This document shows, in pieces, positions 20,401-58,706 of a stretch of 64,000 nt of DNA. Each line of letters opens with the position of its first letter. Positions within the stretch are counted from its first letter, which is position 1. Under the pieces are notes generated by a model. It ran no database searches and was not told where the DNA came from. It saw nothing but the letters and a program-made list of their open reading frames with translations. Both the position numbers and the translations under genes were made by a program. Source of the DNA: Candidatus Beckwithbacteria bacterium (GTDB taxonomy: Bacteria; Patescibacteriota; Microgenomatia; UBA1400; CG1-02-47-37); contig JAPLVF010000013.1 in the NCBI GenBank assembly GCA_026397255.1, positions 85,030 to 149,029 of the forward strand, given 5' to 3'.

Positions 20401-21345
20401 ATGAAGCAATTATTGCAGGAATTGGAAGCTTTACGTTTCGCTTTTAAATTAATTAAACCACCGGCGGTCGTGGTAGAAAATATCCGCCGGGAATCACTGT
20501 TAAAAAGTTCTCTTTATTCAGCGAAAATCGAAGGTAACCAATTGTCTTACGAGACAATTAAAACCAATCTGAATAATAAAACTAAAGCTAAACTGGAAGT
20601 ATTTAATTTATTGACTGCTTATAAATATGTTTATTCTAAAAAGGCCCAAAAAAAAATTTCTTTATCTTTAATAAAAGATCTTCATTTAAAAACGATGAAG
20701 AATTTAATGCCTCATCCTGGAGAATTCCGTCATGAAGCCAGTGCGATTTTTAATCAAGCCGGGGTGGCAATTTATTTGACACCGCCGCCAACGGAAATTA
20801 TTGACCGACTTAACCGGTTAATCAAACAGCTAAATCAATCCCCTGAACAGACACTAATAAAAGCAGTCATGACCCATTTTTGGTTTGAAAAAATCCATCC
20901 TTTTATTGATGGCAACGGCCGGGTCGGCAGATTATTGACTGCCGCAATTATGAACCAAGGGGGATTTGGATTTAACGGTTTAGTATCAATTGAAGAAGCG
21001 ATAAATGATAAAAAGGACGTTTATTACCAAGCCTTAAATGAAACAAAAAATTACCAACACTTAACTGAGTTTTTACTAAATCTTTACCTTGAACAGGGTA
21101 AAAAAGTTTTTACTAAATTAACCCAACCGCAAACAGAAGAAGAATCGACATTGCCGTTGAGGCGTCAGGAAATATTAAATATTCTTAAAGATCACCCCTA
21201 TGCCAGCTTTGATTTTATTCAGCGGCGGTTTTTGTCAATCAATCCGAAAACCCTCCATTATGATTTAAAAAAACTCCAAGAGCAAAAGTTAGTAATAAAA
21301 ATCGGTTCTACCCGTGGCGCAGTCTATCAGCTGATTTTCAGGTAA
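20401..21345 (+). CDS. Fic/DOC family protein with a C-terminal winged-helix region
   Basis: The canonical Fic motif HPFIDGNGRVGR is present. The C-terminal 60 aa (ILNILKDHPYASFDFIQRRFLSINPKTLHYDLKKLQEQKLV) resemble a wHTH. Confidence 0.8.
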   Translation: MKQLLQELEALRFAFKLIKPPAVVVENIRRESLLKSSLYSAKIEGNQLSYETIKTNLNNKTKAKLEVFNLLTAYKYVYSKKAQKKISLSLIKDLHLKTMKNLMPHPGEFRHEASAIFNQAGVAIYLTPPPTEIIDRLNRLIKQLNQSPEQTLIKAVMTHFWFEKIHPFIDGNGRVGRLLTAAIMNQGGFGFNGLVSIEEAINDKKDVYYQALNETKNYQHLTEFLLNLYLEQGKKVFTKLTQPQTEEESTLPLRRQEILNILKDHPYASFDFIQRRFLSINPKTLHYDLKKLQEQKLVIKIGSTRGAVYQLIFR

Positions 21346-46938: not shown

Positions 46939-48016
46939 CTGTGGTTATTTGATTAATAATCTGGTCTATTTTAATCTTTTTTTCTAATATTTGTATCCGG
47001 GAAAAATTAGCCTTGATGGCTGGGTGAGTAGAGATAAGCGAGCAACAATCTTTGTAAGGTTTAATTGTTTCTTCATACAGGCCAATACCTTTCACTAAAG
47101 CGATAATGTCTTTTTTGTCAGTACCGATTAGGGGGCGAAAAATGGGAATTTTGACAGCCTCATCAACGCTACAGATATTTTCCATGGTTTGAGAGGCCAC
47201 CTGACCTAAACTATCACCCAAAACTAAAGCCTGGTAGCCGTATTTTTTAGCCAAGATTTCCCCCACTCTGGCCATCAACCGGCGATAAACCACTAATTCC
47301 TGCGGTTCATCACGACTAGTTAAATCTAAAACAGCCATTTGAAAGGGTAAATACGAGGCCAAATAAATATTCTGGGATAAGGTCAGGCCGGACAATTTAT
47401 CAACGATTGTTTTAATTTTGCTTTGCAGAACTGTCTTTGAATCAGGAAAAACATGAAAGTGTAAGAAATCCACCTGCGCTCCCCGCTTGGCTAATAAATA
47501 CGAGGCGGCAATCGAGTCAAAGCCGCCGGATAATAAAGATAAAACTTTGCCGGAAGTGGCAACCGGCAGGCCACCTGGTCCGGGGATTTTTTGGTTAAAA
47601 ATAAGCGTCTGATTATTAAATTCAGTAATGTAAATTGTTTGTTGGGGATGAGATAAATCGACTTTTATCTTTTTCTTGGTTCTAATCACATCGCCAATGG
47701 CCACTTCTAAATGACGGTGGGCTCTGACACTAAAAGTTTTTTTAGAAACGGCCATTTGTAAAGCAATTTTAGAAATTGATTCCAGGTTATTGGTTGACTC
47801 TTGAACCGGAGCAAACCAGGCAATGCCAAAAACGTTTTTTAATTTATCCAAGTCAATGTTTTCGCCGGAAATCATAATCTGTTTTTGCCCTTTAATTATT
47901 TGAAGTGAGGGATTTTTCAAGGCGATTTTAATATTGGTAATCAACCGGTTTTCAAAAAACGGCCGATTACCGCCTTTTAGGCCAATTTCGGCATAACGAA
48001 CGAGAATTTTTTGCAT
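46916..48016 (-). CDS. thiI: tRNA 4-thiouridine synthase ThiI (THUMP + PP-loop)
   Basis: MQKILVRYAEIGLKGGNRPFFE is the ThiI N-terminus. The PP-loop reads LSLLSGGFDSIAASY. Confidence 0.85.
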   Translation of the reverse strand: MQKILVRYAEIGLKGGNRPFFENRLITNIKIALKNPSLQIIKGQKQIMISGENIDLDKLKNVFGIAWFAPVQESTNNLESISKIALQMAVSKKTFSVRAHRHLEVAIGDVIRTKKKIKVDLSHPQQTIYITEFNNQTLIFNQKIPGPGGLPVATSGKVLSLLSGGFDSIAASYLLAKRGAQVDFLHFHVFPDSKTVLQSKIKTIVDKLSGLTLSQNIYLASYLPFQMAVLDLTSRDEPQELVVYRRLMARVGEILAKKYGYQALVLGDSLGQVASQTMENICSVDEAVKIPIFRPLIGTDKKDIIALVKGIGLYEETIKPYKDCCSLISTHPAIKANFSRIQILEKKIKIDQIINQITTDVRIISL

Positions 48017-48070
48017 ATTAGTTTATTTTACTCTCAAAGCTGCAAAATCTGTTAAAATAAGCTATAAAAC

Positions 48071-48141
48071 TGCCGGATGGTGAAATGGCATCACAGGCGG
48101 CTCTGAACCGCCTATTCCAAGTCCGAATCTTGGTCCGGCAA
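48071..48141 (+). tRNA. tRNA-Gln (anticodon CUG), with U1-A72 and an unusual T-loop TCCGAAT
   Basis: Hand-folded cloverleaf. The acceptor is TGCCGGA/TCCGGCA (7 bp, perfect). U8 is present. The D stem is GTGA/TCAC with loop AATGGCA. The anticodon stem is GGCGG/CCGCC with loop CTCTGAA (U33, CTG, A37). The variable region is TATT. The T stem is CCAAG/CTTGG. The discriminator is A. Confidence 0.65.
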
Positions 48142-48281
48142 CACTACTGGACGGAAAGCGACCGTAAGCTCTTAAATAGGTTGATGGCACTTGCTAAACC
48201 TCTACTTTGTTTTTAGGAGTTTCGGACCGTCCCCCTTATTGTTCAGGGTCCTAAATATTTTTCTTCAGACAATTTTTGAAC

Positions 48282-49391
48282 TTAATTATTCTTTTTTCGT
48301 CTTATGAAGAAAATGTAGCCTGCTGCAAGAAGCGTGATTCCTATTCCAAAAAAGATTATATTTTTGCGACTACGACTTCCTTGGGAAACTGGGGAAATTG
48401 TGGGCGCTGGAGAAGAAGTTGCTTCTTTACCCAGCACTTCTCCCGCGGCTGAAACTGTTTCACCAAGCACTCCTGGAGCAAAACCTTCCGGAACCTCATT
48501 TATTACTTGACCATAAACATCGGTTGATAGCTCATTGGAAAAATCGCCTGGCATACAATTATTACCGGCCCTAACTTTGAAAAAATATTTAATTCCTGAC
48601 GACAGTCCTTTTACTGTATAGGATGTTGTATTATTTCCACCAACATTTGGATTTCCATAAAGCATTTCTCCGGATTTAGTTCCAAATGCAATTAAGTAAT
48701 AAGTTACCGGGTCCTTTGCTTTCGACCAGATTAAGGTAACTTCATTTGATCCACCTTGAATTATGGAAACAAGAGAAGGAGCGCTTCCAGGTTTTTCATC
48801 AGAACATACAGAAGAAGTAGAAGTTGTTGTTGTTCCCACTACTTCCCCTCCGCTACTTGTGTTATTTTCAGTCGCAAAACTTTTTTCATCACCAACTACC
48901 TCTGGTGAACCATGTGAAATTACACGGTAATAATAGGTAGTTTCTGCGGTGAGCCCACTGATTGTCACAGAATGTGAAGTAACTTTTGGAGAATTATCTG
49001 CTTCTATTGTAGAGTTAGCATAGCCATAGTTTGGAGCAATATCCAATACAGCGTGAGAAACAGTATCGTAAATCACTCTACTGGTACTTTGATGGTCAGT
49101 AGTCCAAACTATTGTTATGCTCGTTTCACTTGGTGCGTTAGTGGTTTCCTGTGAGATTGTGGGAGGTGGATTAACAGTAATGCTAATAGTGGCCGTATTG
49201 CTGTCAATCGTCCCGTCATTAGCTTTAAAGGTAAAAGAGTCTGTACCAGTGTAGCTGGCGGTTGGAGTGTAATCCACCTGGCTATCAGTCAAATTGCTTA
49301 AAATGCCATGGGAAACTCCGGAAACAATTGAGATCCAAAAAATAATTGATAAATTATACCTTAAAAAAAGGTAAGCAATGGTAAAAATCAC
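48282..49391 (-). CDS. Secreted FN3-like surface protein (369 aa) with a C-terminal TM anchor and basic tail
   Basis: A signal peptide, beta-rich T/S-rich repeats (ETTYYYRV is FN3-like) and C-terminal ...GEVLGKEATSSPAPTISPVSQGSRSRKNIIFFGIGITLLAAGYIFFIRRKKNN. Confidence 0.65.
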   Translation of the reverse strand: MIFTIAYLFLRYNLSIIFWISIVSGVSHGILSNLTDSQVDYTPTASYTGTDSFTFKANDGTIDSNTATISITVNPPPTISQETTNAPSETSITIVWTTDHQSTSRVIYDTVSHAVLDIAPNYGYANSTIEADNSPKVTSHSVTISGLTAETTYYYRVISHGSPEVVGDEKSFATENNTSSGGEVVGTTTTSTSSVCSDEKPGSAPSLVSIIQGGSNEVTLIWSKAKDPVTYYLIAFGTKSGEMLYGNPNVGGNNTTSYTVKGLSSGIKYFFKVRAGNNCMPGDFSNELSTDVYGQVINEVPEGFAPGVLGETVSAAGEVLGKEATSSPAPTISPVSQGSRSRKNIIFFGIGITLLAAGYIFFIRRKKNN

Positions 49392-49522
49392 TGACCCCTT
49401 TATTGATAAAATGGCTCCCTCTATCCAAAAAAAGGCGAAAGAAATTTTAGTTTATTGTAAAAATGATATTGTCAGAATTAAAAGAGAAAGGCCTAGAAGA
49501 AAAAAGCCAATAAATATTAAAA

Positions 49523-49909
49523 ATGACCATTAAAAAAGAGTCAGCCGAAGAATTTATCAAAAGAAAAGGAAACCTTTTTAAAAAACATAACACTATTCAA
49601 GTTAAAGATATTGGTAGGACTGGGGTTCATTATTTTATCCGTGAAGCTTGGACGTTTTTAGCACAGAGTAATCTTAAGGAAAAAGTGTTTGTTATCGAAC
49701 GATTAAGAAAAGAGTCGACTATAGGCAAACTGGCTTATGATAACTGGAAAAAAGGAGACATTGAATACAGAATCGGTTACTACATCGTAGGTAGAGTTGG
49801 TCGCGCCAAAGGGAAGTGGATTTGGGGGCAGTTTTGTCCAATGATTCCTCAAAACGATTTAGGTAAATTATTGGACAAAGCTCGGAAAGAAAGAACAATT
49901 ATTTACTAA
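49523..49909 (+). CDS. Hypothetical basic protein (128 aa), first gene of the island operon
   Basis: ORF with intergenic gaps of 16, 5 and 21 nt to the next three genes. No motif recognised. Confidence 0.5.
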   Translation: MTIKKESAEEFIKRKGNLFKKHNTIQVKDIGRTGVHYFIREAWTFLAQSNLKEKVFVIERLRKESTIGKLAYDNWKKGDIEYRIGYYIVGRVGRAKGKWIWGQFCPMIPQNDLGKLLDKARKERTIIY

Positions 49910-49925
49910 TTTGAACTAGGATTAT

Positions 49926-50525
49926 ATGCCTTTATCTGACAAAGCTATTCAAGAATATAAGGATATTTTTAAGAAAAAGTATGGTAAGGATTTATCTGAT
50001 GCTGAAGCCAAAGAACAAGGAGAAAACCTATTAGGATTTTTTGAGCTTTTGTTTAAAATGGCCGAAAAGGAATATTTAAGGAAACAGAGACTTAAAAGAG
50101 AAAAAATTAAGGGATTTTTCCTTGATGCCGATGAAGGAGCTTATTCTTGCGGGATTTGTGGAGAAAATTACCCCGGAAATAATATTTGGTGGAACCCAAA
50201 AGGATTAAAATGCCGAGATTGTTGGAGAAATATTAAAAATAGAGTAATCCCCGATTTGAAATATAAACATGATCATAATGAAGTTTGGATTCAAGATTGG
50301 CAAATAAAATACGACTATGGCGTTCACCCATCAACAGCAAGAAAACTTAGTCGAGAAGGATTGCTTCATGGGAGAGATTTAAAAAGAGAAAACGGAATGA
50401 CTTACTGTACGATTTATTTGGTGAAAGAAAATAAAGGGTTTTTAAAGAAATATCCGAAGAAGCCGGCAATTAAAGTTAAATTTGTTAATCCCGAGATTAA
50501 TAAAACAATGCAACAAAAAACATAA
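49926..50525 (+). CDS. Hypothetical protein with a C4-type zinc ribbon (199 aa)
   Basis: SCGICGEN...(13 aa)...CRDCW gives two CxxC pairs after an N-terminal helical region. Confidence 0.5.
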   Translation: MPLSDKAIQEYKDIFKKKYGKDLSDAEAKEQGENLLGFFELLFKMAEKEYLRKQRLKREKIKGFFLDADEGAYSCGICGENYPGNNIWWNPKGLKCRDCWRNIKNRVIPDLKYKHDHNEVWIQDWQIKYDYGVHPSTARKLSREGLLHGRDLKRENGMTYCTIYLVKENKGFLKKYPKKPAIKVKFVNPEINKTMQQKT

Positions 50526-50530
50526 GTTCT

Positions 50531-51367
50531 ATGCATTTTAATAAACGCCAGGAAGAATTAATTTCAGAGTATAAAAAACTTTTACTTTTTGGTTATCAAA
50601 AAATAAGCACAATCGGTCTAAATATTAAAAAAACTAGAGTAAGGAAAAGAGTTCTATATTTCATGATGGGTGCGATGCAAAATTTTTCTGAAAGTATATT
50701 GAAATTATTAGGTTCAATACCAATTTATGAAAGACCTGGAGAATCTCTATTAAGATCTCAGTTTGAATTATTGCTAAACGTAAGGTTTATTTATTCGGGC
50801 AGAACAGAAGAAAATGCAAGATTATTTCTTTCGGATTTATTACTAGAATCTATTAGCTTTGCAAAAAAACATCATAGGCTATGGGACAAATATCCCAAAT
50901 GGGATCTAACTTTCGGATCAATAAAAAAACCGTGTGATTGGGACAAATTTATCTTGGGAAGTTTATATGATCTACAAAAATATAGAGAAAGGCACGGTGA
51001 TAATAATGTTAATAAGCTACCCAGCTTATACGATAGAACTTTACAAATAGATAAATATCTTAAAAAGATAGGTACATTCTCCGAAAACAACAGCGCTGAG
51101 AAATATTATATTTACTATTATCAATTTTTTTCTCAAGCAACTCATTTAAATATGTCAGGGTTGCAAAGATATTTGAGAAGTAAAAAAGATATTTTAAAGG
51201 AACCCTTTTTTGATATTGATTCAAAACCTGAAGATGCTGAAAGAATATTGGCAGTTAGCTATCAAGCCTATTTTGTAATGCTTCGTCATTTTTTACAGGT
51301 ATTTAATAGTTTTGATAGCCATGAATTAAAGTTTTTTAACAAATATTCAAAAAAAATAGCAAAATAA
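50531..51367 (+). CDS. Hypothetical all-alpha protein (278 aa)
   Basis: ORF in the operon. No motif recognised. Confidence 0.5.
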   Translation: MHFNKRQEELISEYKKLLLFGYQKISTIGLNIKKTRVRKRVLYFMMGAMQNFSESILKLLGSIPIYERPGESLLRSQFELLLNVRFIYSGRTEENARLFLSDLLLESISFAKKHHRLWDKYPKWDLTFGSIKKPCDWDKFILGSLYDLQKYRERHGDNNVNKLPSLYDRTLQIDKYLKKIGTFSENNSAEKYYIYYYQFFSQATHLNMSGLQRYLRSKKDILKEPFFDIDSKPEDAERILAVSYQAYFVMLRHFLQVFNSFDSHELKFFNKYSKKIAK

Positions 51368-51388
51368 AGAATTATCTTTAAAAAAATT

Positions 51389-52645
51389 ATGGGTCCAACG
51401 ATAATATTTGATAAATCGTTCCTTCAAAGTATAAGCGTTGATGAATCCGTATTTCTTCAACAGTTTTTTATAACCAACGTAACCCCACTTTTTTATGTAG
51501 AGACTCTAGGAGACCTTGATTTAGGAAAACACAAAAGCGGGAAACCAATCACAGAAATTATTAGTGCACTAGCAATAAAAGTACCATCAACTAGTGTTGC
51601 GCCAAATATTCATCATAGAAGATTAATTATGGGTAATTTAATAGGCATGGACGTTGAAATGGATGGCAGAATTATTCGTGAAGGTGGTATCGAGAAAGTT
51701 GATCCTGACGGAAACGTTGGTATTCACTACTCTGAATCTCAAGAGGAAATGGCCTTAAATAGATGGCATAAAAGAGAATATTTTGCTGTTGAAAAATTAT
51801 TTTCTAAATCATGGAGAAATATGTTATCAAATCTAACCTTTGATCACATATTAGGAATCATTAAAAATCTTCTACCTAATAATGAAAAGTTATCAAATTA
51901 TTCACAAGTAAAAAAATTCGTAGATAAATTTATCACAAAAACAAAGATCGAGCTTTTACTTTATCTCGTTATTGAATTTTCAGGGATTAACCAAAATTAT
52001 TATCATAAAGCATTACAAAGATGGCGTAGAGAATCTATTTCGGATTTTGAGAAATTTGCCCCTTATGCAGCATATGTTTTAAAAATCGACTTGTTTTTCT
52101 ACATTTGCATGTTTCTTGGCTTGGAGTCGAAAAATCGTCCAAGCCATAAAATCGATCTAGCCTATTTATATTATTTACCTTTTTGTAATGTTTTCGTATC
52201 AAGCGATAAACTACATAAAAGAATTGTTAATTTTTTTTTGAGAAAAGATCAAATTTTTGTAGATGGCCCAGACTTTAAAAGAGGCTTAAGTAAATTAAAT
52301 GAATACTACTTGCATTATTTAGATCAAATTAATAAAGAAGGATTTATGAGATTTGCCCCTCAGCCTCCAAAAGATTTAGACAATACCGTTTCTAAAATAT
52401 GGGACAAAATATTTCCTAATTGGAGAGGAACAAAGCTAGATAAAATAAAAGAGAGAAATCCGGAAGAAGAAAAAATATTATTAGAAAAGTTAAAAAGAAT
52501 TCAGAAAGAATCAATTGTAGTTGATAGAAAAACACCTATGGATGACATTCATCACATTATCGAAACACATAAAGTTCTGGTTCAAAAAGGAAAATGGAGA
52601 ATTCTTCCCGAGGGAATAGAAAATAAAAAGTCACAAAATAAATAA
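51389..52645 (+). CDS. Hypothetical protein (418 aa), possibly with PIN-like features at the N-terminus
   Basis: N-terminal TIIFDKSFLQS...YVETLGDL and later NVFVSSDK segments loosely resemble the PIN acidic-residue pattern. Very tentative. Confidence 0.45.
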   Translation: MGPTIIFDKSFLQSISVDESVFLQQFFITNVTPLFYVETLGDLDLGKHKSGKPITEIISALAIKVPSTSVAPNIHHRRLIMGNLIGMDVEMDGRIIREGGIEKVDPDGNVGIHYSESQEEMALNRWHKREYFAVEKLFSKSWRNMLSNLTFDHILGIIKNLLPNNEKLSNYSQVKKFVDKFITKTKIELLLYLVIEFSGINQNYYHKALQRWRRESISDFEKFAPYAAYVLKIDLFFYICMFLGLESKNRPSHKIDLAYLYYLPFCNVFVSSDKLHKRIVNFFLRKDQIFVDGPDFKRGLSKLNEYYLHYLDQINKEGFMRFAPQPPKDLDNTVSKIWDKIFPNWRGTKLDKIKERNPEEEKILLEKLKRIQKESIVVDRKTPMDDIHHIIETHKVLVQKGKWRILPEGIENKKSQNK

Positions 52646-52755
52646 TATATCAAACTATATCAGCAATATTAAAGACGTCCCTTTTTATACTGTCTCATTT
52701 GTCTCATTTAGTCTGGGGATGATACACTATGGGAGTTTAGTTATAGCGACTTAAT

Positions 52756-52781
52756 GGTCCCAGACCGGACCGCTCAACTAA
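52756..52781 (+). promoter_or_regulatory. Conserved hairpin motif copy 1: GGTCCCAGACCGGACCGCTCAACTAA
   Basis: Stem GGTCC/GGACC. The motif ends 32 nt before the ATG at 52814. Confidence 0.5.
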
Positions 52782-52813
52782 TACGAGCAAAATTAATAAA
52801 AAAACAAAATTAT

Positions 52814-53626
52814 ATGGGTAATACATTAATTACTTACAAACAAAAATTAAATCTTAATAATGGATTTGTTATTAATATTAATGAATTTAAACGTATTTAT
52901 AGGGCTGTAGAGGAAACAATCAAAAATACCTCGGAATACAAAAAAGATATCAGTATCTACTCAAGCATAGAAGGTGAAACAAGTGCCGGAGATATAAAAG
53001 GACAATCTTTTGAAGATTTTCTAAATGAAATTATAACTCGACAGCTTGAGCTACAGTCTGTCAGAATATATCTGAGTTATAGTACTTATTCAAAAGAAAA
53101 TCCCTATTCCTATACAATCGACATGTATTTAGGAAGAGCTTTTGGTAACCAGATAAATCTGAGTGGATCAGACGAAAAATGGGTTTTAGATTCAAAAGAC
53201 AAACTTGAATTCACTTTTAGCAAGGTATCTCTATACCCCAAAGCTAAAAAGCCATTACCAACTAGATTAGTTGACTTTATATTTAATGGTAAGTTGGTAG
53301 TTACGGCGTGGATAATGGTGATTTTCTCTCTTTTGTTTTCGAAATTTTTCCCAAACATTTATTATGCCTGGATAAGTTCGTTTATTATCGCATATGCGTT
53401 AATGGGTGTAGCTACATTGGCGCTTATTAACCAAGGAGACAAAACTCCAATCGCAAAATTCATGTTTGTAAATAAAGAAAAGCAGGCTACCAAAAAGTCA
53501 ATTGTTGATTATGCTGTGAAGCAGCCGAGAATAATTCAAATAATCCTTTTCATTTTTGCTTTGGTAGGTTTTATTTCTGCGATATTTACAATAATAGACA
53601 TTGCTAAAAGATATAACTGGATATAG
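52814..53626 (+). CDS. Hypothetical protein with an N-terminal soluble domain and two C-terminal TM helices (270 aa)
   Basis: The start is set at MGNTLITYK because the upstream in-frame extension is the conserved nucleotide motif. The C-terminus has hydrophobic helices VVTAWIMVIFSLLF... and IIQIILFIFALVGFISAIF. Confidence 0.5.
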   Translation: MGNTLITYKQKLNLNNGFVININEFKRIYRAVEETIKNTSEYKKDISIYSSIEGETSAGDIKGQSFEDFLNEIITRQLELQSVRIYLSYSTYSKENPYSYTIDMYLGRAFGNQINLSGSDEKWVLDSKDKLEFTFSKVSLYPKAKKPLPTRLVDFIFNGKLVVTAWIMVIFSLLFSKFFPNIYYAWISSFIIAYALMGVATLALINQGDKTPIAKFMFVNKEKQATKKSIVDYAVKQPRIIQIILFIFALVGFISAIFTIIDIAKRYNWI

Positions 53627-53653
53627 TTATTTAGTTATTTATAAGGATAGAAT

Positions 53654-53679
53654 GGTCCGAGATCGGGCCACTCAACTAA
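53654..53679 (+). promoter_or_regulatory. Conserved hairpin motif copy 2: GGTCCGAGATCGGGCCACTCAACTAA
   Basis: Extended stem GGTCCGA/TCGGGCC with one G-T position. It ends 2 nt before the ATG at 53682. Confidence 0.5.
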
Positions 53680-53681
53680 AT

Positions 53682-54362
53682 ATGAAATTAAAAGTGGGAT
53701 ACTACAATGAAGAATACAATCTAAAAGAATTCTATGAATTGAAGAAGAAGAATTTTTGGATTGTAATTGTTGTTTTATTATTAACCTTTTTAATAGTTAC
53801 TTTTAAACTACTCCCAAATAATTTTACGGCGGTTTTAATTTCCTTTGTTGCTGTCGGTGTAATATCTGATTTATTGATAAATATGATTGTGGGTAATATT
53901 TGGAGCCGTAAGTCTTTAAGAGATGTTGATGGCGTTCAAAAATATCTATCTCCATTAGAACAGGTGTCTTGGTTACCCAGAATAATTGGTATTTTTGAAC
54001 GAATAATCTTTACGGCTAGTTTTATTATGCAAAAACCTGAATTCATTGGTATTTGGTTAGGTTTGAAAGTTATTGGAAGCTGGAAAGACAATTCTCCTGA
54101 AAATCTGGAGAAAGAAAGAAAGAAAAAAGAAAAAGGGGAAAAAGTAATTAAACTCTGGCGCATAAGAGAGAATATTTTTCTTATAGGGACAGCTTTATCA
54201 CTTTTTTCGAGTTTTTTCGCATCCTACATATATTCACAAATAATTCATTTAACCAATTCTTTCGATAATAAATCTATCCATCTTCAGAAAAAAATTATGT
54301 ATTTACAACATAATTATTATCATTTTCCAGCGTACGATAATTTTTCAAAATCAGAAAAATAA
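53682..54362 (+). CDS. Hypothetical polytopic membrane protein (227 aa)
   Basis: The start is set at MKLKVGYY. About 4 TM helices and a KE-rich loop (EKERKKKEKGEK). Confidence 0.5.
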   Translation: MKLKVGYYNEEYNLKEFYELKKKNFWIVIVVLLLTFLIVTFKLLPNNFTAVLISFVAVGVISDLLINMIVGNIWSRKSLRDVDGVQKYLSPLEQVSWLPRIIGIFERIIFTASFIMQKPEFIGIWLGLKVIGSWKDNSPENLEKERKKKEKGEKVIKLWRIRENIFLIGTALSLFSSFFASYIYSQIIHLTNSFDNKSIHLQKKIMYLQHNYYHFPAYDNFSKSEK

Positions 54363-54428
54363 ATTAGTCATAGACCAACTAGTTAAGTAAATTTGAGACA
54401 AATACGGAGATTGTCTTTAAATTTGAAT

Positions 54429-55025
54429 ATGCAACAATATATATGGGGAACATGCCAAACGAAAAAATATTCAATATTAGAAGTAAGCCAATCACAAAAT
54501 CAAATAGTTATAAGGCCAATTGGAACAAAAACACATTTAACTTTACACAAGCTCGATGTTAAAAAGGAAACTGATCAGTACTGGATAGTTAAATATCAAA
54601 ATTCTCCACTTAAGTTATATAAAAATTCGTATGCGCCTATATCATTTAGTTGGAATAGTTCAGCAATTAGAGGAGTCTGGTCAGATTTAATAGTAGATGT
54701 GGCAAGGAAAAGTGGATTTTTAAATCCGGAAAAACACGCCACCTCTTCTCAAGGTTTATTAGTTAAATGTGTAAACACAATGGGTTACGATATCGGTACA
54801 ACTAGAATAGAATTGAATCATAGCTCTATCAAGGCAAAATATCTTAAACAGGCTGATAAGATCGCTGAATTAGATCTAAAAAATACTAAATTTATGGTTA
54901 GGATAATTCTTTCAACTCCAGATAATGAATATAAAAACAAGTCAGATTGTTCATTTGAAACTAATTTAGGTAAATTATTTATTGTTAATGAAGAGGTACC
55001 AGTTATCAGGATAAAACGGTCCTAG
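54429..55025 (+). CDS. Hypothetical soluble protein (about 198 aa)
   Basis: The ATG at 54429 (MQQYIWG...) is preferred over the TTG start at 54393. The stop codon TAG lies inside motif copy 3. Confidence 0.45.
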   Translation: MQQYIWGTCQTKKYSILEVSQSQNQIVIRPIGTKTHLTLHKLDVKKETDQYWIVKYQNSPLKLYKNSYAPISFSWNSSAIRGVWSDLIVDVARKSGFLNPEKHATSSQGLLVKCVNTMGYDIGTTRIELNHSSIKAKYLKQADKIAELDLKNTKFMVRIILSTPDNEYKNKSDCSFETNLGKLFIVNEEVPVIRIKRS

Positions 55026-55043
55026 ACCGAACCGCTCAATAAA
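55018..55043 (+). promoter_or_regulatory. Conserved hairpin motif copy 3: GGTCCTAGACCGAACCGCTCAATAAA
   Basis: The most diverged copy. It contains the stop codon of the upstream gene and ends 39 nt before the ATG at 55083. Confidence 0.45.
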
Positions 55044-55082
55044 TAGGTACTTAATACACCTAAAATTTGATATTATAAAAAT

Positions 55083-55979
55083 ATGAATATAAATATAAGT
55101 ATAAATACAAATAAAAATCAACTTTCCCTGACCCCATTGGAAATTGCATCTAACAAACTTTTTGCAGTTTTGCTGGCCTTGTCCACTCTCATGTATTTTT
55201 TAAATATATTTACTCTCCCGACAATCATTATCTATATAGTGTTTGTCTTTTTCCTCTGGTTCGGTAAAAAATATCGCCTGTTTGCCAACATTATTTTTTT
55301 AATTTTCGCTATAGGTGTTTATTTTATCCCAATTACGCCCATTGGCTGGGGGCTTTTCCGCATGCTAAAAGAACTTCGACTTGGCGATGTTGATTTTAAT
55401 TTTGCCTTAATTTTTTACCTTGCCGCACTTATTTTTATTTCTTTTTCGGTTAGAAATGTTTTAGGCAATATTTTCGCTTACTTTAAAACCAGCACCGCGT
55501 CGCGTAATGTTTATTATTTTATTTCTCTAGTTATTGTTTTGGCAACACTCTTAGCTTATCCGTTTTTGGATAGCGTAAAGTTACGCGATCAATCTTTTCC
55601 AGCACAAGGAACCGGAGATCTGAGTACAATTGTCATACGACAAACACTTACTTTTATAGATCGTTATCATAAAGAGGACGGTTTCACTTCGAGGTTTGAT
55701 TCTTCCACTAAAAAATATGTTTACCGTTTGCGATTACTTGAGCCATTAAATAAAGACCTTCAATTTACAAAAGTTGAAACTGACGGCGAAAAAATTAATT
55801 TTACAACTGATAACCGGGTAAAATGTTTGAATTGTCAAAAGGATATGGGCAATCCCTACGGCTTAGTTTTCCCGGCTGGCAAAGACATTGATTTCATCAT
55901 CTCCAGTGACCAGTTGATTAGGACAATAAATTTCACTGAGCAGGAAAATAAGCTGGCTGAATTTGTTTTTTGGAAATAA
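55083..55979 (+). CDS. Hypothetical membrane protein with about 4 N-terminal TM helices and a soluble C-terminal domain (298 aa)
   Basis: Hydrophobic segments FAVLLALSTLMYFL, IIIYIVFVFFLWF, IIFLIFAIGVYFI and ALIFYLAALIFISF. Confidence 0.5.
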   Translation: MNINISINTNKNQLSLTPLEIASNKLFAVLLALSTLMYFLNIFTLPTIIIYIVFVFFLWFGKKYRLFANIIFLIFAIGVYFIPITPIGWGLFRMLKELRLGDVDFNFALIFYLAALIFISFSVRNVLGNIFAYFKTSTASRNVYYFISLVIVLATLLAYPFLDSVKLRDQSFPAQGTGDLSTIVIRQTLTFIDRYHKEDGFTSRFDSSTKKYVYRLRLLEPLNKDLQFTKVETDGEKINFTTDNRVKCLNCQKDMGNPYGLVFPAGKDIDFIISSDQLIRTINFTEQENKLAEFVFWK

Positions 55980-56024
55980 TTTCGGAGGATAAAGTTTGCA
56001 AACTACACTTATAATGATATTAAG

Positions 56025-56049
56025 GGTCCAGACCGGACCGCTCAACTAA
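56025..56049 (+). promoter_or_regulatory. Conserved hairpin motif copy 4: GGTCCAGACCGGACCGCTCAACTAA (one nt shorter)
   Basis: It ends 1 nt before the ATG at 56051. An in-frame TAA within the motif rules it out as coding extension. Confidence 0.5.
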
Positions 56050-56050
56050 G

Positions 56051-56710
56051 ATGAAATTTTTTAGATATTTGCTGGCGTTTTTAACTATCTTAATTTTTAT
56101 TTTGGCCATTTATTTTGGGTTTTTTAAGACGAAAAATAAAGAACACACGATTCTTTCACCGATCGCAGAAGTAACTACCCAAAAAACTTCAAATTTCTCA
56201 CTAGAAAAAGCACCAACGGAATCACTTAAAGGAAAAATTGTGACTATGACAGGAGAAATTAGCTGGCAGTCAAGAACGGCAACTGAGGCAGCCAGAATTT
56301 TTTCGCCCAGCGAAATTCAACAAGGAGAGAAATTAATTACCGGAGAAAAAAGCAATTTAGCTTTGGTTTTTACAGAGGCCTGTTCGGTAACACTTTCGGA
56401 GAAAACAGAAATGGAGATTGTGCAAACTCTTCCGGCCAATATAGTTTTTTCCCAAACTAACGGGACTGGCGAATATGTTAAAACAGGTGGTTATCCTGTG
56501 ACTATCAGGGTGATGAACCTTTTGGCAGAAGAGGATGGTGATATGATCGTCTCTATTGATCCAAAAAAACCGATTATTAGCTTGACTCTAAGGTCAGGAA
56601 AAGCGACGGCGGCCTTTAATGATTTAAATTATGTCAGTCATGAAATGACAGTGGTTGCCGGACAAACTTTTATTTTCAATTATGATACGCGGAAAGGGGT
56701 TCTAAAATAG
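56051..56710 (+). CDS. Hypothetical signal-anchored secreted protein (219 aa)
   Basis: MKFFRYLLAFLTILIFILAIYFGFF is a signal anchor. The 3' end overlaps the convergent GH18 gene by about 35 nt. Confidence 0.5.
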   Translation: MKFFRYLLAFLTILIFILAIYFGFFKTKNKEHTILSPIAEVTTQKTSNFSLEKAPTESLKGKIVTMTGEISWQSRTATEAARIFSPSEIQQGEKLITGEKSNLALVFTEACSVTLSEKTEMEIVQTLPANIVFSQTNGTGEYVKTGGYPVTIRVMNLLAEEDGDMIVSIDPKKPIISLTLRSGKATAAFNDLNYVSHEMTVVAGQTFIFNYDTRKGVLK

Positions 56711-57848
56711 TTTCTCCCTCGTACCCTAAAGCCCAAAGAGCAATGCCGCCAAGGGAATTTTGTTTGGCTAACTCAGTTTTATACTGGATGGCCGCTTTAT
56801 CCGGATAAAAAATTTGGTAATAAGTTTTAGTTGTCTGGTCCTCATAAATAAAGTGGCTTTCTTTATCAATTTGGTCAAACTGGGCACTGCAAGTAGCACA
56901 GTCTGCCAACAAAGTCTCCGCCCGGACATTGCTGATAATAAAGCCTGTTCCCGGAATAATTGCCGAGCGGGGAACATTGCCGATGGCTTCCCAGCCGTAG
57001 CCATAAAGAGGAATGCCTAAAATAAGTTTTTTGGCAGGCATTATTTTAAGAGCCGCCTCAACTGCAGCTTGAGTGTCGAATTCGGAAACCACTCCTGCCC
57101 CCTCTCCCGGAGCCACCGGTCCGGTGACATAAGAACCGATGTAGTGATAGTCATAAGCCATGAGAATTACTTTATCAACCAGCGAAGCCAGGATAGCCGG
57201 ATCGGAAAGGTTTGTTTCTTTGACAAAAGCAAAGGCAGTAATATCAATAGACAGGCTTTTTACTTTTTTAGGATCGAGGTTGCTTTTGACTGCTTGAACA
57301 AAACGGGTAAATTTTACCCGGGCTGCAGGAGAGGCATCTTGAGTCTGTTCAATGTCTAAATTTAAATCAGTAAAACCATAATTCTCCATTATGGGAGTAA
57401 CTGCTTCGACTAAATTTTTAGCGCTGGCTTCCGGATCAGCCAGCAGATTATTTATGGTTTCGTCATCAACGCTGAAGACAGCCAACGAAAGCTTAACTTT
57501 TTTTTCTTTGGCGCTATTAATGAAAGGGTCAATTTTGCCGCTGGTGAGGGCTAAATAGCCGGGTTCACTTTCTCCGGGATTGGTATATTTTTGAATGGTC
57601 CCGTCACCGGCAACGGTCAAGCTAAAATAGGTCAACGTAGTAATATATTTTGAGTAATCGTTTTGGGCCCGGCTGACCAACCAATAAGGCAGGAAACCGA
57701 CAACTTCCCGACGGGGAATGACAATATTAACCAATGAGACTTTTTCGCCGGAGATTTTTGGCAGGAAGTAATTATAAATTGTCAGATATCCGGCAAAAAT
57801 TACGGCGATTAAAATTAGAAAGATTAAGACGCTTTTTCGCTTCATCAA
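56676..57848 (-). CDS. Glycoside hydrolase family 18-like protein (YdhD/YaaH-like), N-terminally anchored
   Basis: YGFTDLNLDIEQ aligns to the GH18 DGxDxDWE region with the catalytic Glu retained. LILGIPLYGYGWE is a GH18 hallmark. A TM helix is at the N-terminus. Confidence 0.7.
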   Translation of the reverse strand: MMKRKSVLIFLILIAVIFAGYLTIYNYFLPKISGEKVSLVNIVIPRREVVGFLPYWLVSRAQNDYSKYITTLTYFSLTVAGDGTIQKYTNPGESEPGYLALTSGKIDPFINSAKEKKVKLSLAVFSVDDETINNLLADPEASAKNLVEAVTPIMENYGFTDLNLDIEQTQDASPAARVKFTRFVQAVKSNLDPKKVKSLSIDITAFAFVKETNLSDPAILASLVDKVILMAYDYHYIGSYVTGPVAPGEGAGVVSEFDTQAAVEAALKIMPAKKLILGIPLYGYGWEAIGNVPRSAIIPGTGFIISNVRAETLLADCATCSAQFDQIDKESHFIYEDQTTKTYYQIFYPDKAAIQYKTELAKQNSLGGIALWALGYEGETILEPLSAYHN

Positions 57849-57869
57849 AAGAAATTATATAATACTTTA

Positions 57870-58706
57870 ATGAAGAGGACCTTAATATTTATTTTATTAC
57901 TAGTAATCGCTGGGGGGATTTTGGGGGTAGTAAAATATTTCTCTCAGCGTAAGACTGATTTCCAAGCCGCAACTGCACATCAACCAAAAATCCCCTTTCA
58001 AAAACTAATCAAGGAGTCAGAAACGGTAAAAGTGCCGATCCTCATTTATCATTACGTGGAATATGTCAAAGATGAAGGAGACACAATCAGAAAAAGCCTG
58101 AACATCACGCCGAATATTTTTGAAAAACAAATTCAGACACTTTTAGATAATTCTTATTCTTTCATTTTTATCGATGAGCTGGCGGATTATCTGGATGGCA
58201 AGGTCAAATTAGCGCCAAAACCGATTATTTTAACTTTTGATGACGGCTATGAAGACTTTTATACCGTGGTTTTGCCAATATTAACAAAACATAACGTCAA
58301 GGCGACGGTTTATATTGTGCCGGGATTTTTGGACAAACTAAATGCGATGACGAGTAAACAAATTCAGGAAGTAGCTAACAGCGGCCTGGTGGAAATTGCC
58401 TCGCACACAGTTCATCATATCAATCTTAAATATGAGTCGGCTAAAATAGCCGAAGCAGAAATTATCGACAGTAAAAACAAACTGGAACAGCTAATTGCCA
58501 AAAGGGTGAATAATTTTGCTTACCCTTACGGCGGTTTTAATGAAGAAACAATCAAATTGCTTAAGGAAGCGGGGTACCGAACGGCGGTGACGGATACAAA
58601 CGGCAGTTACCAATCTGAAGTTAATCGCTATTATCTTTATCGTCTGCGTCCAGGAGCCAAAACCGGCAAAGAGTTAATCGACTGGTTGGAGAGTTTGGAA
58701 AAATAA
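57870..58706 (+). CDS. Polysaccharide deacetylase (NodB homology domain), N-terminally anchored
   Basis: ILTFDDGYEDFYTVVLPIL is NodB motif 1 (TFDDG). ...HTVHHINL is also present. Confidence 0.8.
   Translation: MKRTLIFILLLVIAGGILGVVKYFSQRKTDFQAATAHQPKIPFQKLIKESETVKVPILIYHYVEYVKDEGDTIRKSLNITPNIFEKQIQTLLDNSYSFIFIDELADYLDGKVKLAPKPIILTFDDGYEDFYTVVLPILTKHNVKATVYIVPGFLDKLNAMTSKQIQEVANSGLVEIASHTVHHINLKYESAKIAEAEIIDSKNKLEQLIAKRVNNFAYPYGGFNEETIKLLKEAGYRTAVTDTNGSYQSEVNRYYLYRLRPGAKTGKELIDWLESLEK

Follow-up and report, generated by a model that had tools for sequence, protein, structure and literature searches.

Gene content, composition and extent of the region

The window analysed here, a 64-kb stretch of a Candidatus Beckwithbacteria MAG, contains an AT-rich island of ten plus-strand ORFs (O0 to O9), which lies between a minus-strand gene for a cell-surface protein and a GH18 gene (56676-57848) that is convergent with O9 and overlaps it by 35 nt (Table 1). 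An earlier reading of the window from its letters alone (the sequence-only reading) had listed nine of these ORFs with the correct coordinates and strand, and had noted the overlap with the GH18 gene and a tRNA-Gln near the left side, both of which stand; it had missed the tenth, a conserved ORF of 51 aa (O0). Its report of no integrase or transposase agrees with the Pfam scan of 49 window proteins, which gave no match to either.

Table 1. Features of the island and its left flank, in window coordinates.
Feature	Position	Strand	Basis
tRNA-Gln(CTG)	48071..48142	+	ARAGORN; Rfam tRNA 55.6 bits
Cell-surface protein gene, cadherin-like/fn3 domains, C-terminal anchor	48282..49320	-	Pfam Cadherin_5, Big_9, fn3; LPXTG-like C-terminus
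Type ISP restriction-modification gene stump, last 17 codons + stop, 55 nt	49321..49375	+	blastn vs L147; translation ETIEIQKIIDKLYLKKR*
O0, basic 51-aa ORF overlapping O1 start	49378..49533	+	ORF list; gene called in L147
O1, basic 128-aa protein	49523..49909	+	ORF list
O2, 199 aa, CxxC...CxxC zinc ribbon + HTH-like C-terminal domain	49926..50525	+	family comparison
O3, 278-aa DUF5677 protein, all-alpha bundle	50531..51367	+	family and fold
O4, 418-aa protein, split PIN-fold nuclease core	51389..52645	+	fold; invariant acidic residues
Box A (TAATATATCAAACTATATCA)	52643..52662	+	overlaps O4 stop codon
Box B (CCCTTTTTATACTGTCTCATTTGTCTCATTTAG) + inverted partner arm TGATACA (52720-52726)	52679..52726	+	cross-locus matches
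Box C copy c1 (AGTTATAGCGACTTAATGGTCCCAGACCGGACCGCTCAAC)	52739..52778	+	repeat search, pattern search, nhmmer E=2e-11
O5, 270 aa, soluble N-terminal domain + three C-terminal transmembrane segments	52814..53626	+	NCBI start, NTZ93_03175
Box C copy c2	53637..53676	+	repeat search, pattern search, nhmmer
O6, 226-aa membrane protein from ATG 53682	53682..54362	+	three to four hydrophobic segments
O7, 210-aa soluble protein	54393..55025	+	ORF; stop codon inside Box C copy c3
Box C copy c3	55001..55040	+	repeat search, pattern search, nhmmer
O8, 298 aa, five to six N-terminal transmembrane segments + soluble C-terminal domain	55083..55979	+	segment prediction
Box C copy c4	56007..56046	+	repeat search, pattern search, nhmmer
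O9, 219 aa, N-terminal signal anchor + extracytoplasmic domain	56051..56710	+	one N-terminal transmembrane segment

The GC content falls to about 0.29-0.35 between about 49.3 and 56.2 kb, against about 0.41 outside; the successive 1-kb windows from 49 to 56 kb have values of 0.352, 0.318, 0.292, 0.299, 0.317, 0.295 and 0.343, and nearly all remaining ones lie at about 0.37-0.46, with a patch at 10-12 kb (0.346-0.354) as the single exception. Gene by gene, the island differs from the rest of the window in GC (0.323 vs. 0.409 +/- 0.029; Mann-Whitney p=5.7e-6) and in GC3 (0.275 vs. 0.403; p=1.3e-5), and the AT-richness described in the sequence-only reading is thus confirmed; its expectation for codon usage was borne out for GC3 but not for the CAI, which, with the rest of the window as reference, shows no difference (0.688 vs. 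0.707, p=0.14), so that the island signal is one of base composition and not of codon-rank preference. A 300-nt scan places the drop at about 49,300 and the return to about 0.40 at about 56,200, inside O9; since the composition of O9 is itself intermediate (GC 0.376, GC3 0.336), the right edge falls somewhere within or just before this gene, and the island extends from about 49,320 to about 56,200-56,700. A close relative with an empty site or with the right boundary was not found; the nearest genomes found are only 62-79% identical in ThiI.

Left junction and the genes O0 to O4

The left edge had been placed just after a surface-protein gene of 48282-49391; the actual edge, at about 49,320, lies inside that ORF and is marked by the stump of a Type ISP restriction-modification gene. 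In L147, a contig from another sample's metagenome, the ORF that ends in the stretch homologous to the stump matches Pfam Type_ISP_C (E=4.9e-78), and O0-O4 follow directly behind this intact gene, whereas in the window only the 55-nt stump is left, abutting the surface-protein ORF on the opposite strand. The two sequences share 94.7% nucleotide identity by blastn over window positions 49321-52708, beginning at 49321; a copy of the first 3.4 kb in a different genomic context bears out a foreign origin of the island. The divergence between the copies is a mosaic, about 1% in O3 and O4 and 13% in O2, and all comparable island ORFs are under purifying selection, with pN/pS values of 0.12 (O2) to 0.34 (O0, with 5 nucleotide and 3 amino acid changes); O1 is more diverged in L147 and one codon shorter.

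The surface-protein gene is probably truncated at its 5' end by the same junction. The first 23 codons of its ORF overlap the Type ISP stump on the opposite strand, and residues 23-75 align with positions 34-86 of the 98 in the NCBIfam profile tand_rpt_95, so that the match begins in mid-repeat. The GC3 of this gene is 0.276; other surface-protein genes in the window likewise have low GC3. The tRNA-Gln gene adjoins the variable region; its 3' end occurs only once in the 64-kb window, and the gene is not duplicated at the far end of the island. Relatives with conserved left-flank genes have nothing in common to the right of ThiI and tRNA-Gln; in one of them (L020) the tRNA-Gln gene also lies beside ThiI and is followed by unrelated genes.

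Among the proteins of this block, O0 has no Pfam family, and O1, like O6, O7 and O8, has no family in Pfam, PADLOC, PHROGs or NCBIfam. O2 is probably a DNA-binding protein, judging from its zinc ribbon and its relatives: its family comprises 333 representative clusters, in which the domain stands alone (about 170-210 aa) or forms the C-terminus of proteins of about 530-556 aa, and its homologues show weak HTH_17 matches and fusions to AAA_18 and Peptidase_S51. The DUF5677 homologues of O3 are accompanied either by a DNA methylase and HicAB or by a Type ISP gene together with Pif1; in a defence-island screen DUF5677 was enriched beside serine recombinases, and an assay of a DUF5677 gene in Enterococcus did not place it with the active candidates (PMC12632615). 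The family founded by O4 has more than 1,591 clusters, with proteins of about 420 aa and invariant acidic residues; the core of O4 is made of residues ~1-45 and ~250-292, with a helical insert of about 200 aa between them and a C-terminal extension behind, and O4 is probably an RNA- or DNA-cutting enzyme. O4 homologues adjoin MmeI-type restriction-modification genes, Macro, LexA-like and SMODS/AGS_C genes in L005, where a 541-aa protein whose C-terminus is 41% identical to O2 lies 2.5 kb away; follow directly after N6_Mtase and Methylase_S in L146; and adjoin AAA and Peptidase_S8 genes and large serine recombinases in L145. No phage record matches O4, and a single partial plasmid hit was obtained. 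The earlier guess that the island houses defence or toxin systems is supported only by the association of O3 and O4 homologues with restriction-modification, SMODS/AGS_C, HicAB and large serine recombinase genes, and not by recognition of a known system, for which PADLOC gave 0 hits; PHROGs and NCBIfam returned no family for the island proteins.

The second half and its repeated intergenic element

The second half had been described as a set of small membrane or secreted proteins with a shared upstream motif. Hydrophobic segments are present in O5, O6, O8 and O9, but O7 is soluble; the motif is real: with up to three mismatches allowed, the core GGTCCnAGACCGGACCGCTCAAC has four matches, each on the plus strand and within the island's second half, and 100 shuffles gave none. 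The motif, here named Box C, is part of an element of about 140 nt, Box A-Box B-Box C, whose full form heads the first unit of the second half, and which has no copy elsewhere in the 64-kb window. The copies sit tightly between genes: 35 nt separate c1 from the O5 start given by NCBI, c2 reaches from 11 nt past the O5 stop to 5 nt short of the O6 ATG at 53682 (gene callers also pick an alternative ATG at 53652, inside the box, as seen in L001), and the end of c4 and the start codon of O9 are 4 nt apart. The Logan contig L001 breaks off 30 nt past c3.

At least 12 other loci, on low-GC, Patescibacteria-like contigs, carry homologous Box C copies, always on the same strand as the neighbouring genes. 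The box has a fixed length of about 40-41 nt without indels across 22 copies; for 16 of 25 copies the upstream stop codon lies between -27 and +26 nt relative to the start of the box, and for 8 of 25 the downstream start codon lies 1-6 nt past its end. Copies within a contig are not significantly more alike than copies between contigs (0.627 vs. 0.599, permutation p=0.20). In L129 and L133 the upstream gene is divergent, yet Box C still precedes the downstream gene; in L011 two copies have no gene after them. At six loci the full Box A-Box B-Box C series comes behind the stop codon of an O3 or O4 homologue; Box A overlaps or abuts the stop codon of the O4 homologue in L005 and of three DUF5677 homologues (L011, L013, L015), and in L002 it lies at the stop of a 323-aa gene that follows the O4 homologue. 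Box B has 0-3 mismatches in the window, L011, L013, L105 and L129, and 4-8 in L002, L005, L015 and L072; its arms pair at 7 of 7 positions through different sequences in L002 (TGTGCCA/TGGTACA) and L005 (TGTCCCA/TGGGACA), and at 6 of 7 in the window. Box B could be read as a sigma-70-like promoter (TTGTCT, 18 nt, TGnTACACT) or, alternatively, as a hairpin.

O5 has Box C on both sides and only two homologues, one in L144 flanked by good copies of the box, the other in L141, where decayed copies flank it and its neighbours are a DEAD helicase gene on one side and, in convergent orientation, a YkuD gene on the other; the box-O5-box unit is seen in three contexts. Of the cassette array proposed in the sequence-only reading, the motif and this recurring unit hold up, but the array is not an integron, and Box C does not mark mobile cassettes alone, since in another contig (L072) it precedes housekeeping genes (YceG/MltG, MTS methyltransferase). 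Integron attC sites have the arrangement R'' RYYYAAC ... R' GTTRRRY, where Box C instead has GTT...AAC; identity of the box with attC was rejected, as neither its polarity nor its structure is attC-like and there is no IntI.

Origin of the island and role of the element

We think it fairly probable that this accessory island is a mosaic gained by horizontal transfer, that it carries candidate defence cargo and portable intergenic linkers, and that it was put together by recombination and not by an integrase. Its first module, O0-O4 (49,378-52,645), would be a co-travelling block that once lay just downstream of a Type ISP gene; members of the O3 family and of the O4 family would spread separately among Patescibacteria, landing in variable regions next to genes for restriction-modification, nucleotide cyclases, toxin-antitoxin systems and serine recombinases. 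The module may serve in conflict or defence, with O4 as a putative metal-dependent nuclease effector of an abortive-infection or addiction type. The second module (O5, O6-O7, O8, O9) is a row of membrane or secreted-protein genes, each unit headed by Box C.

The region might instead be native, its AT-richness the outcome of relaxed selection or mutation bias in fast-evolving, weakly expressed, lineage-specific genes. The CAI shared with the rest of the window, the lack of an integrase, transposase or att duplication, the near-normal composition of O9 and the low GC3 of surface-protein genes elsewhere in the window fit this account, which we nevertheless regard as very improbable: O0-O4 occur at 94.7% identity behind a different left neighbour whose stump persists in the window, and this junction already contradicts it; moreover, homologues of O3, O4 and O5 lie in unrelated contexts of other genomes, the comparable ORFs are all under purifying selection, and the box element is confined to the island within the 64-kb window. 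Equally hard to credit is an origin of the island by decay of a prophage, plasmid or integrative element, as its AT-rich, unidirectional genes, the nearby tRNA gene and the possibly holin-like small membrane proteins (weak holin matches for O6, E of 0.4-0.5) might suggest; no PHROGs family was found below E=0.1, O4 has no phage record and a single partial plasmid hit, IMG/VR contains neither Box C nor Box B nor variants of them, and structural, replication or integration genes are not present.

For the element itself, an unlikely alternative is that the second half is an integron-like cassette array, in which Box C or the full element is the site of a site-specific recombinase encoded elsewhere that moves single-gene cassettes in and out, the boxes not being expression signals. 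The tight, unidirectional units with a box filling the entire stop-to-start gap, the O5 unit between direct box copies in three unrelated contexts (in one, with a decayed copy facing a convergent gene), the two adjacent gene-less boxes in L011 and the boxes behind the stops of independently mobile O3 and O4 homologues speak for such an array; the fixed length and the inverted Box B arms that change on both sides fit protein-DNA recognition, both short-read contigs (L001, L147) break at the repeat, and large serine recombinases are encoded no more than a few kb away in L141, L145 and L146. However, the scan of 49 window proteins detected no recombinase, box arrays do not consistently have one nearby (L072 is without any), the GTT...AAC polarity is the reverse of attC, Box C has no conserved secondary structure and precedes housekeeping genes in L072, and presence/absence polymorphism with breakpoints in the box was not observed, L013 and L014 differing elsewhere. 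We consider it quite unlikely that the element acts in cis as a structured RNA, be it a leader, processing site, stability element or small RNA, that regulates or processes the transcripts of flanking genes, with its spread reflecting selection for RNA function. The 7/7 pairing of the Box B arms kept through different sequences in L002 and L005, a small GGTCC...GGNCC hairpin that folds in four of four window copies, an orientation that is always that of the genes, and nucleotide conservation above that of the neighbouring proteins are what one would expect of such an RNA, but RNAalifold on 22 Box C copies yielded neither a consensus structure nor supported pairs, the small hairpin usually has a mismatch at its middle pair, single-sequence folds are no better than shuffles (z from -1.3 to -2.2), the Box B stem reaches a shuffle p of only 0.02-0.06 per locus, no Rfam family matches the element up to E 10, and the diversity of the downstream genes is too great for a metabolite-sensing leader.

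As a portable intergenic linker between the preceding stop codon and the following start codon, the element may combine two roles: as a repeated homology patch it would let genes shuffle between loci, and it may supply start-of-gene signals, with a TATAAN box about 6 nt before the point at which transcription would start in this largely leaderless genome and a conserved initial transcribed stretch. The TATAAN of Box C is usually without the final T of a -10 hexamer, and the most conserved part of the box lies downstream of it. A pure gene-start element does not explain the decayed copy downstream of the O5 homologue in L141, which faces the convergent gene, or the gene-less copies in L011. The genome has few Shine-Dalgarno sequences, and TAnnnT boxes lie 6-7 nt before the start codons of 20 of 52 genes, against 9.5 +/- 2.8 expected.

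Composition, borders and assembly of the island

The sequence-only reading had described nine plus-strand ORFs within a sharply AT-richer stretch, and both points were confirmed. The 1-kb windows between 49 and 56 kb have GC contents of 0.352, 0.318, 0.292, 0.299, 0.317, 0.295, and 0.343, compared to ~0.37-0.46 nearly throughout the rest of the window, where 10-12 kb (0.346-0.354) forms the sole exception; at 300-nt resolution, GC drops at ~49,300 and recovers at ~56,200. Mean GC per gene was 0.323 for the nine island ORFs vs. 0.409 +/- 0.029 for 53 other ORFs (p=5.7e-6), and GC3 was 0.275 vs. 0.403 (p=1.3e-5). The codon adaptation index (CAI), proposed alongside GC as a check of the boundaries, showed no island difference when the rest of the window served as reference (p=0.14) and was rejected as an island marker; the compositional claim therefore stands for GC and GC3 but not for CAI. 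A tenth conserved ORF lies upstream of O1 (see table of features). Both flanks consist of ordinary genes, coding for Elp3-like radical SAM, methyltransferase, NUDIX, inositol monophosphatase, and ThiI proteins on the left, and for GH18, polysaccharide deacetylase, ABC transporter, PEBP, and MacB proteins on the right. The supposed absence of an integrase or transposase held among the 49 window proteins scanned against Pfam, none of which contained a recombinase or transposase domain; the unscanned ORFs are of large housekeeping size or shorter than 250 aa. A second small compositional outlier lies beside a tRNA gene at 9164-11508, and a Fic/DOC family gene occurs among housekeeping genes.

Features of the window, with coordinates as window positions
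Feature	Position	Strand	Sequence or composition	Remark
Mrr_cat restriction-endonuclease-like gene	9164-10096	minus		part of the 9164-11508 outlier
tRNA-Glu	10635-10707			part of the 9164-11508 outlier
AT-rich SAM-methyltransferase gene	10798-11508		GC 0.307, GC3 0.224	
Fic/DOC family gene	20401-21345			
tRNA-Gln	48071-48142			
Surface-protein ORF	48282-49391	minus		
Type ISP gene stump	49321-49375		ETIEIQKIIDKLYLKKR and stop	last 17 codons and stop
Tenth conserved ORF	49378-49533			51 aa
Box A	52643-52662		TAATATATCAAACTATATCA	overlaps O4 stop codon
Box B	52679-52711		CCCTTTTTATACTGTCTCATTTGTCTCATTTAG	between Box A and Box C
Box C, copy c1	52739-52778			35 nt before NCBI start of O5
Box C, copy c2				11 nt after O5 stop; 5 nt before an ATG of O6
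Box C, copy c3				spans O7 stop
Box C, copy c4				4 nt before O9 start

The origin of the left half of the island (O0-O4, module 1) can be approached through a 4.1-kb contig from another sequencing run (L147), which aligns with window positions 49321-52708 (94.7% nucleotide identity) and has O0-O4 in unchanged order; O4 itself is identical to NTZ93_03170, encoded on a 358,919-bp contig that belongs to a Candidatus Beckwithbacteria MAG. Left of the aligned segment, L147 contains the intact C-terminal domain of a Type ISP restriction-modification protein (Pfam Type_ISP_C, E=4.9e-78); in the window, this gene is reduced to a terminal stump, and a complete Mrr-helicase-methylase-TRD polypeptide is absent. 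The stump abuts the surface-protein ORF on the opposite strand. Since the first domain match of this ORF begins partway through a repeat (positions 34-86 of the 98-position tand_rpt_95 profile) and the opening 23 codons of the ORF overlap with the stump on the other strand, the ORF is probably a 5'-truncated remnant, and ~49,320 would mark a recombination scar. The GC3 of the surface-protein ORF, 0.276, is as low as that of the island. We take L147 as the decisive evidence for a transfer of the O0-O4 block. Divergence between the window and L147 is mosaic, with ~1% in O3 and O4 and 13% in O2 (pS 0.45), and pN/pS amounts to 0.12-0.34 in every comparable ORF including O0; these are genuine genes under selection in which internal recombination has taken place. 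One block of four to five genes is seen in two genomic settings, and the stump of a restriction gene is left as the scar, which indicates that the island was assembled by recombination and not by an integrase.

A genome-collection scan with the left neighbor ThiI yielded four genomes (ThiI identity 62-79%) that share the genes to the left of ThiI; none of them contained the surface-protein gene, the island, or GH18, at a distance too large to define an empty site. One of these relatives (L020) keeps tRNA-Gln beside ThiI, followed by unrelated genes, and the comparison fits a predicted variable region. The locus resembles tRNA-adjacent integrative islands in its distance of 1.2 kb from tRNA-Gln, and in the different region downstream of tRNA-Gln in the sole tRNA-keeping relative; unlike such islands, it lacks both an integrase and a second copy of the tRNA 3' end (a search for the final 18 nt of tRNA-Gln, allowing <=3 mismatches, returned a single site), and the tRNA is separated from the junction by the truncated surface-protein gene. 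An island integrated at the tRNA was rejected, given that the 49 proteins scanned included no integrase and that no att repeat was found.

Gene content of module 1 and the O4 family

The 418-aa O4 protein belongs to a large family, with homologs in more than 1,591 clusters of ~415-430 aa; Patescibacteria account for most of these clusters and Actinomycetota for some, and no Pfam domain was found in any of them. Residues D8, K9, S10, E38, D42, D256, S271, D273, and H276 are invariant in 39 family sequences that share 37-67% identity. The AlphaFold model based on the family alignment is confident (pLDDT 91.2, pTM 0.89) and has the Rossmannoid three-layer fold of PIN domains, with a split core: strand 1 and the first helices are N-terminal, the remaining strands follow at ~268-292 after a ~200-residue helical insert, and a C-terminal extension comes last. 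In PIN domains, three or four invariant acidic residues make up the metal site, a set that D8, E38, D42, D256, and D273 would supply; as in PIN nucleases, the conserved acidic residues occur on the N-terminal strand, on the helix after it, and on the C-terminal strands. The best structural matches were VapC11, VapC15, Nob1, and other PIN domains. Neither full-length O4 nor, at E up to 10, the spliced core of nine members matched a curated Pfam PIN model, and a profile search found no sequence relatives in PDB; since these searches and Foldseek against PDB all missed the relationship, the predicted PIN assignment stands at the level of the fold only. PIN-like nucleases have reportedly been classified by Matelska et al. 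in 2017.

Unlike VapC-type PIN toxins, O4 has its core interrupted by the long insert, carries the C-terminal extension, and lacks a VapB-like partner. No upstream antitoxin was co-conserved with O4 in the loci compared; the upstream neighbor differs in every one of them (DUF5677 in the window; SMODS/AGS_C, a methylase S subunit, Peptidase_S8, DUF6308, or a 34-aa ORF elsewhere), and a VapBC module was rejected on this account. Individual O4 homologs follow SMODS/AGS_C, a LexA-like gene, Macro, and an MmeI-type restriction-modification gene (L005); directly follow N6_Mtase and Methylase_S with a serine recombinase nearby (L146); lie beside AAA and Peptidase_S8, two resolvase-family recombinases, HTH_17, and DUF4365 (L145); are embedded among housekeeping genes and precede a 323-aa partner gene (L002); or, in the actinomycetotal L008, have a 699-aa partner. 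These contexts differ from locus to locus, yet they recur in type. No Pfam, NCBIfam, PADLOC, or PDB sequence relative was found, and the split-PIN family is in this sense new to the databases searched; large, unnamed, and often placed beside restriction-modification or recombinase genes, it is a candidate for a new defense or addiction effector. Large serine recombinases (Resolvase/Recombinase/Zn_ribbon_recom) were seen within a few kb of O5 or O4 homologs at L141 4533-6059, L145 7646-9579, and L146 12722-13284; in both L145 and L146, DUF5659 and HTH_17 genes are found next to these recombinases.

The 278-aa O3 protein is a bona fide DUF5677 member (PF18928; 35.6 bits, above the Pfam gathering threshold of 27.1; E=1.3e-8; positions 26-164 of the 166-position profile). 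All of its 57 homologs come from Microgenomates-type genomes, all but one contain PF18928, and their neighbors are a DNA methylase with HicAB, a Type ISP gene with Pif1, or a LAGLIDADG gene; the O3 model shows a helical bundle lacking informative structural neighbors. In a defense-island screen, DUF5677 was enriched next to serine recombinases and, when tested, was not among the active candidates (PMC12632615). In L015, the ORF at 7237-7998, just upstream of the DUF5677 homolog at 8001-8843, is itself a weak DUF5677 match (E=0.0075), which suggests tandem paralogs in some genomes. O2 combines a CxxC...CxxC ribbon with a C-terminal domain whose counterparts in the homologs match HTH_17 weakly; domains of this type also stand alone or at the C-terminus of ~540-aa proteins, one of them 2.5 kb from the L005 O4 homolog.

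Patescibacteria have minimal genomes with few recognized defense or mobility systems, and little is understood of the ways in which they take up and express accessory genes. Genomic islands have been reported by the hundreds in patescibacterial MAGs (PMC12455944). The locus as a whole is a variable or defense-type genomic island of this known kind: it is compositionally deviant, non-syntenic, and packed with orphan genes whose homologs adjoin restriction-modification, cyclase, toxin-antitoxin, and recombinase genes. This neighborhood of the O3 and O4 homologs supports, by association, the earlier guess that the island has a defense or toxin role; PADLOC-DB 2.0 gave 0 matches for the nine island proteins (E up to 1), and PADLOC, PHROGs, and NCBIfam together yielded nothing usable for them. 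By association, we infer that module 1 may be conflict-type cargo with O4 as the candidate nuclease effector. In contrast to known defense and variable islands, the locus contains no recognizable defense system or mobility gene, its junction is a truncation scar and not an att site, and half of it is a linker-organized array.

The intergenic boxes and the reading of gene starts

The shared upstream motif noticed in the second half of the island proved to be real. A repeat search returned a 46-nt direct repeat at 52741, 53639, 55003, and 56009, whose core has four matches at <=3 mismatches, against 0 in 100 shuffles, and occurs nowhere else in the 64 kb. The associated genes (module 2) had been taken for small membrane or secreted proteins; O5, O6, O8, and O9 are indeed membrane or signal-anchored proteins, but O7 is soluble. 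This repeat, Box C (consensus AGTTATAAGGATAGAATGGTCCTAGACCGGCCCGCTCAAC), is of fixed length, with 0 indels in 22 copies, and is the last third of a longer element that also comprises Box A and Box B. The A-B-C order recurs after the O4 homolog of L005, after the 323-aa gene behind the O4 homolog of L002, and after DUF5677 homologs in L011, L013, and L015; Box B and Box C occur without Box A in L105, L129, L011, and L072.

Homologous Box C copies were found in other low-GC contigs (L023, L105, L129, L133, L144) and in loci fetched via O3 and O4 homologs (L002, L005, L011, L013, L015, L020); the pattern used on metagenomes was loose, so that ~110 of 120 loci were chance matches in high-GC contigs and L023, L072, L105, L129, and L133 the real ones. 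L072 has 6-7 copies within 11 kb, all on the gene strand. The stop codon of a same-strand upstream ORF falls within -27 to +26 nt of the Box C start in 16 of 25 copies, and the downstream start lies 1-6 nt past the Box C end in eight of the 25 and at 27-91 nt in about ten; in L129 and L133, the upstream gene is divergent and Box C still heads the downstream gene. Since Box C precedes YceG/MltG and an MTS methyltransferase in L072, along with serine hydrolases and unknown genes, it is not confined to mobile genes.

Several identities for Box C were tried and rejected. A coding function disagrees with variable sites at codon positions 1 and 2 and with the lack of an ATG in c3 and c4; a tRNA 3' half or an att repeat of tRNA-Gln was discarded, and so was a terminator, as there is no consistent GC hairpin with a T-run. 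A prophage remnant was dismissed because the boxes (Box B and variants included) are absent from IMG/VR phages and O4 has no relative in the phage collection, with only one partial relative on a plasmid.

Outside the island, only ~19% of the genes have a Shine-Dalgarno-like word, and 20 of 52 genes have a TAnnnT hexamer whose end lies 5-9 nt upstream of the start, vs. 9.5 +/- 2.8 in shuffled sequence, with a peak at 6-7 nt; the scarcity of the former and the excess of the latter suggest that this Beckwithbacteria genome makes frequent use of leaderless mRNAs. Box C contains TATAAN and, after a gap of ~6 nt, a position occupied by ATG in 9 of 25 copies, beyond which comes a conserved initial stretch of 25 nt; the box ATG is in frame for O5 and O6, and gene callers choose it. 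Box C thus looks like a compact start-of-gene module, to judge by its sequence pattern. As a pure promoter, it would have the weak final hexamer position and the orphan copies counting against it.

Competing readings of the element

The favored reading is a portable intergenic linker, in which the Box A-Box B-Box C element would end one gene and start the next, and its repetition would permit homologous exchange of genes between copies. Short, conserved, non-coding intergenic elements with many copies per genome, often near stop codons, are known as REP/BIME, Correia elements, and RUP/BOX. The element would resemble them in being short, multicopy, near stops, and perhaps equipped with promoter-like signals; it would differ in its strict co-orientation with genes, the lack of terminal inverted repeats or palindromic REP structure, the lack of a RAYT or other transposase, and its tripartite build that bridges stop and start codons. 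Box B can be parsed either as a promoter (TTGTCT, 18 nt, then TGnTACACT or TGnGACAAT) or as a hairpin arm in which TGTCTCA pairs with TGAGACA ~20 nt downstream. The arms pair at 7/7 positions in L105 and L013 and at 6/7 in the window, and again at 7/7 with changed sequence in L002 (TGTGCCA/TGGTACA) and L005 (TGTCCCA/TGGGACA); such changes on both arms would fit either a palindromic binding site for a protein or a hairpin in RNA or DNA, at shuffle p-values of only 0.02-0.06 per locus. RNAalifold found no consensus structure for Box C, and Rfam searches of 47,900-57,900 (E up to 10) returned only the tRNA and two chance-level matches elsewhere (E 1.4, 3.6); a structured RNA spanning all three boxes seems unlikely. 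The literature search yielded no description of the boxes and no link between Patescibacteria and integron attC sites; absent from Rfam, IMG/VR, and the literature found, the element is new to the sources searched.

An integron-like nature of the boxes, which would recast module 2 as the cassette array proposed by the sequence-only reading, has the geometry on its side. As in integron cassette arrays, the genes are unidirectional and tightly packed, and a repeated site abuts stop and start codons; as with integron cassettes, one gene-plus-site unit, O5, occurs in three contexts. Its only two homologs are a 54% identical protein in L144, which like O5 in the window has a Box C at either side, and a 79% identical one in L141, which a DEAD helicase gene and a convergent YkuD gene enclose, with decayed box copies on both sides (the downstream one facing no co-oriented gene) and a large serine recombinase 4 kb away. 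In L011 (11098-11220), two Box C copies 72 nt apart, with Box B upstream, have no gene downstream; this pair lies between two minus-strand genes and could be an "empty" linker site. Two independent short-read contigs end at the repeat, L001 at window position 55078, 30 nt past c3, and L147 at 52708, inside Box B, which hints at assembly-graph branching from multiple copies or strain variants. The O5 contexts, orphan boxes, and contig ends would fit a unit that moves with its boxes. Integron arrays are built of mostly promoterless single-gene cassettes, each bounded by the site; here O6-O7 form a two-gene unit, YceG and MTS genes are box-headed, and near-identical loci revealed no indel polymorphism or breakpoint inside a box (L013 and L014 differ elsewhere). 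No recombinase was consistently near the boxes in the loci compared, and copies within a contig were not significantly more alike than copies between contigs (p=0.20). Clusters of attC sites without an integrase are known as CALINs, and module 2 likewise has no integrase beside it; no IntI with an attI site was found in the window proteins scanned or in the fetched loci. The attC site has R'' (RYYYAAC) at its 5' and R' (GTTRRRY) at its 3' end, and forms an imperfect hairpin conserved in structure and not in sequence. Unlike attC, the box (AGTTATA...GCTCAAC) has GTT at the 5' and AAC at the 3' end, the reverse polarity, lacks an attC-like fold, is ~40 nt long, keeps its sequence across contigs that differ in composition and gene content, and also heads housekeeping genes. 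Box C as a canonical attC site was rejected on polarity and structure; the integron-like alternative appears unlikely.

A broader version would make Box A-Box B-Box C the signature of an undescribed patescibacterial gene-cassette system, a combined recombination site and expression module at which a recombinase moves single genes, with cargo that includes defense-type genes such as the split-PIN nuclease and DUF5677. We give such a system a distinctly low probability; if it existed, it would offer tiny genomes an integron-like route for exchanging accessory genes. Under the favored linker reading, a stop-start-bridging element found across several contigs may explain gene expression, and possibly gene shuffling, in an apparently mostly leaderless lineage; should it act as a recombination site, a new cassette system would follow, and a promoter or leader function would give an uncultivated phylum a portable expression signal of practical use.

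Finally, some Box C copies contain a 27-nt insertion, CCCTTCGACT(A/T)CGCTCAGGGTTATAA(A/C)CT, between GGCC and GCTCA (L072 ~10,841-10,893 and 6,145-6,194, minus strand; L023 704-790), which resembles a nested partial box joined to a GC-rich repeat. Small ORFs beside Box C in two unrelated contigs (L023 833-1102, L105 3719-4000) appear GIY-YIG-like, a likeness noted by eye in the N-terminal sequence (YVYIL...IYVGxT...RRxxEH).
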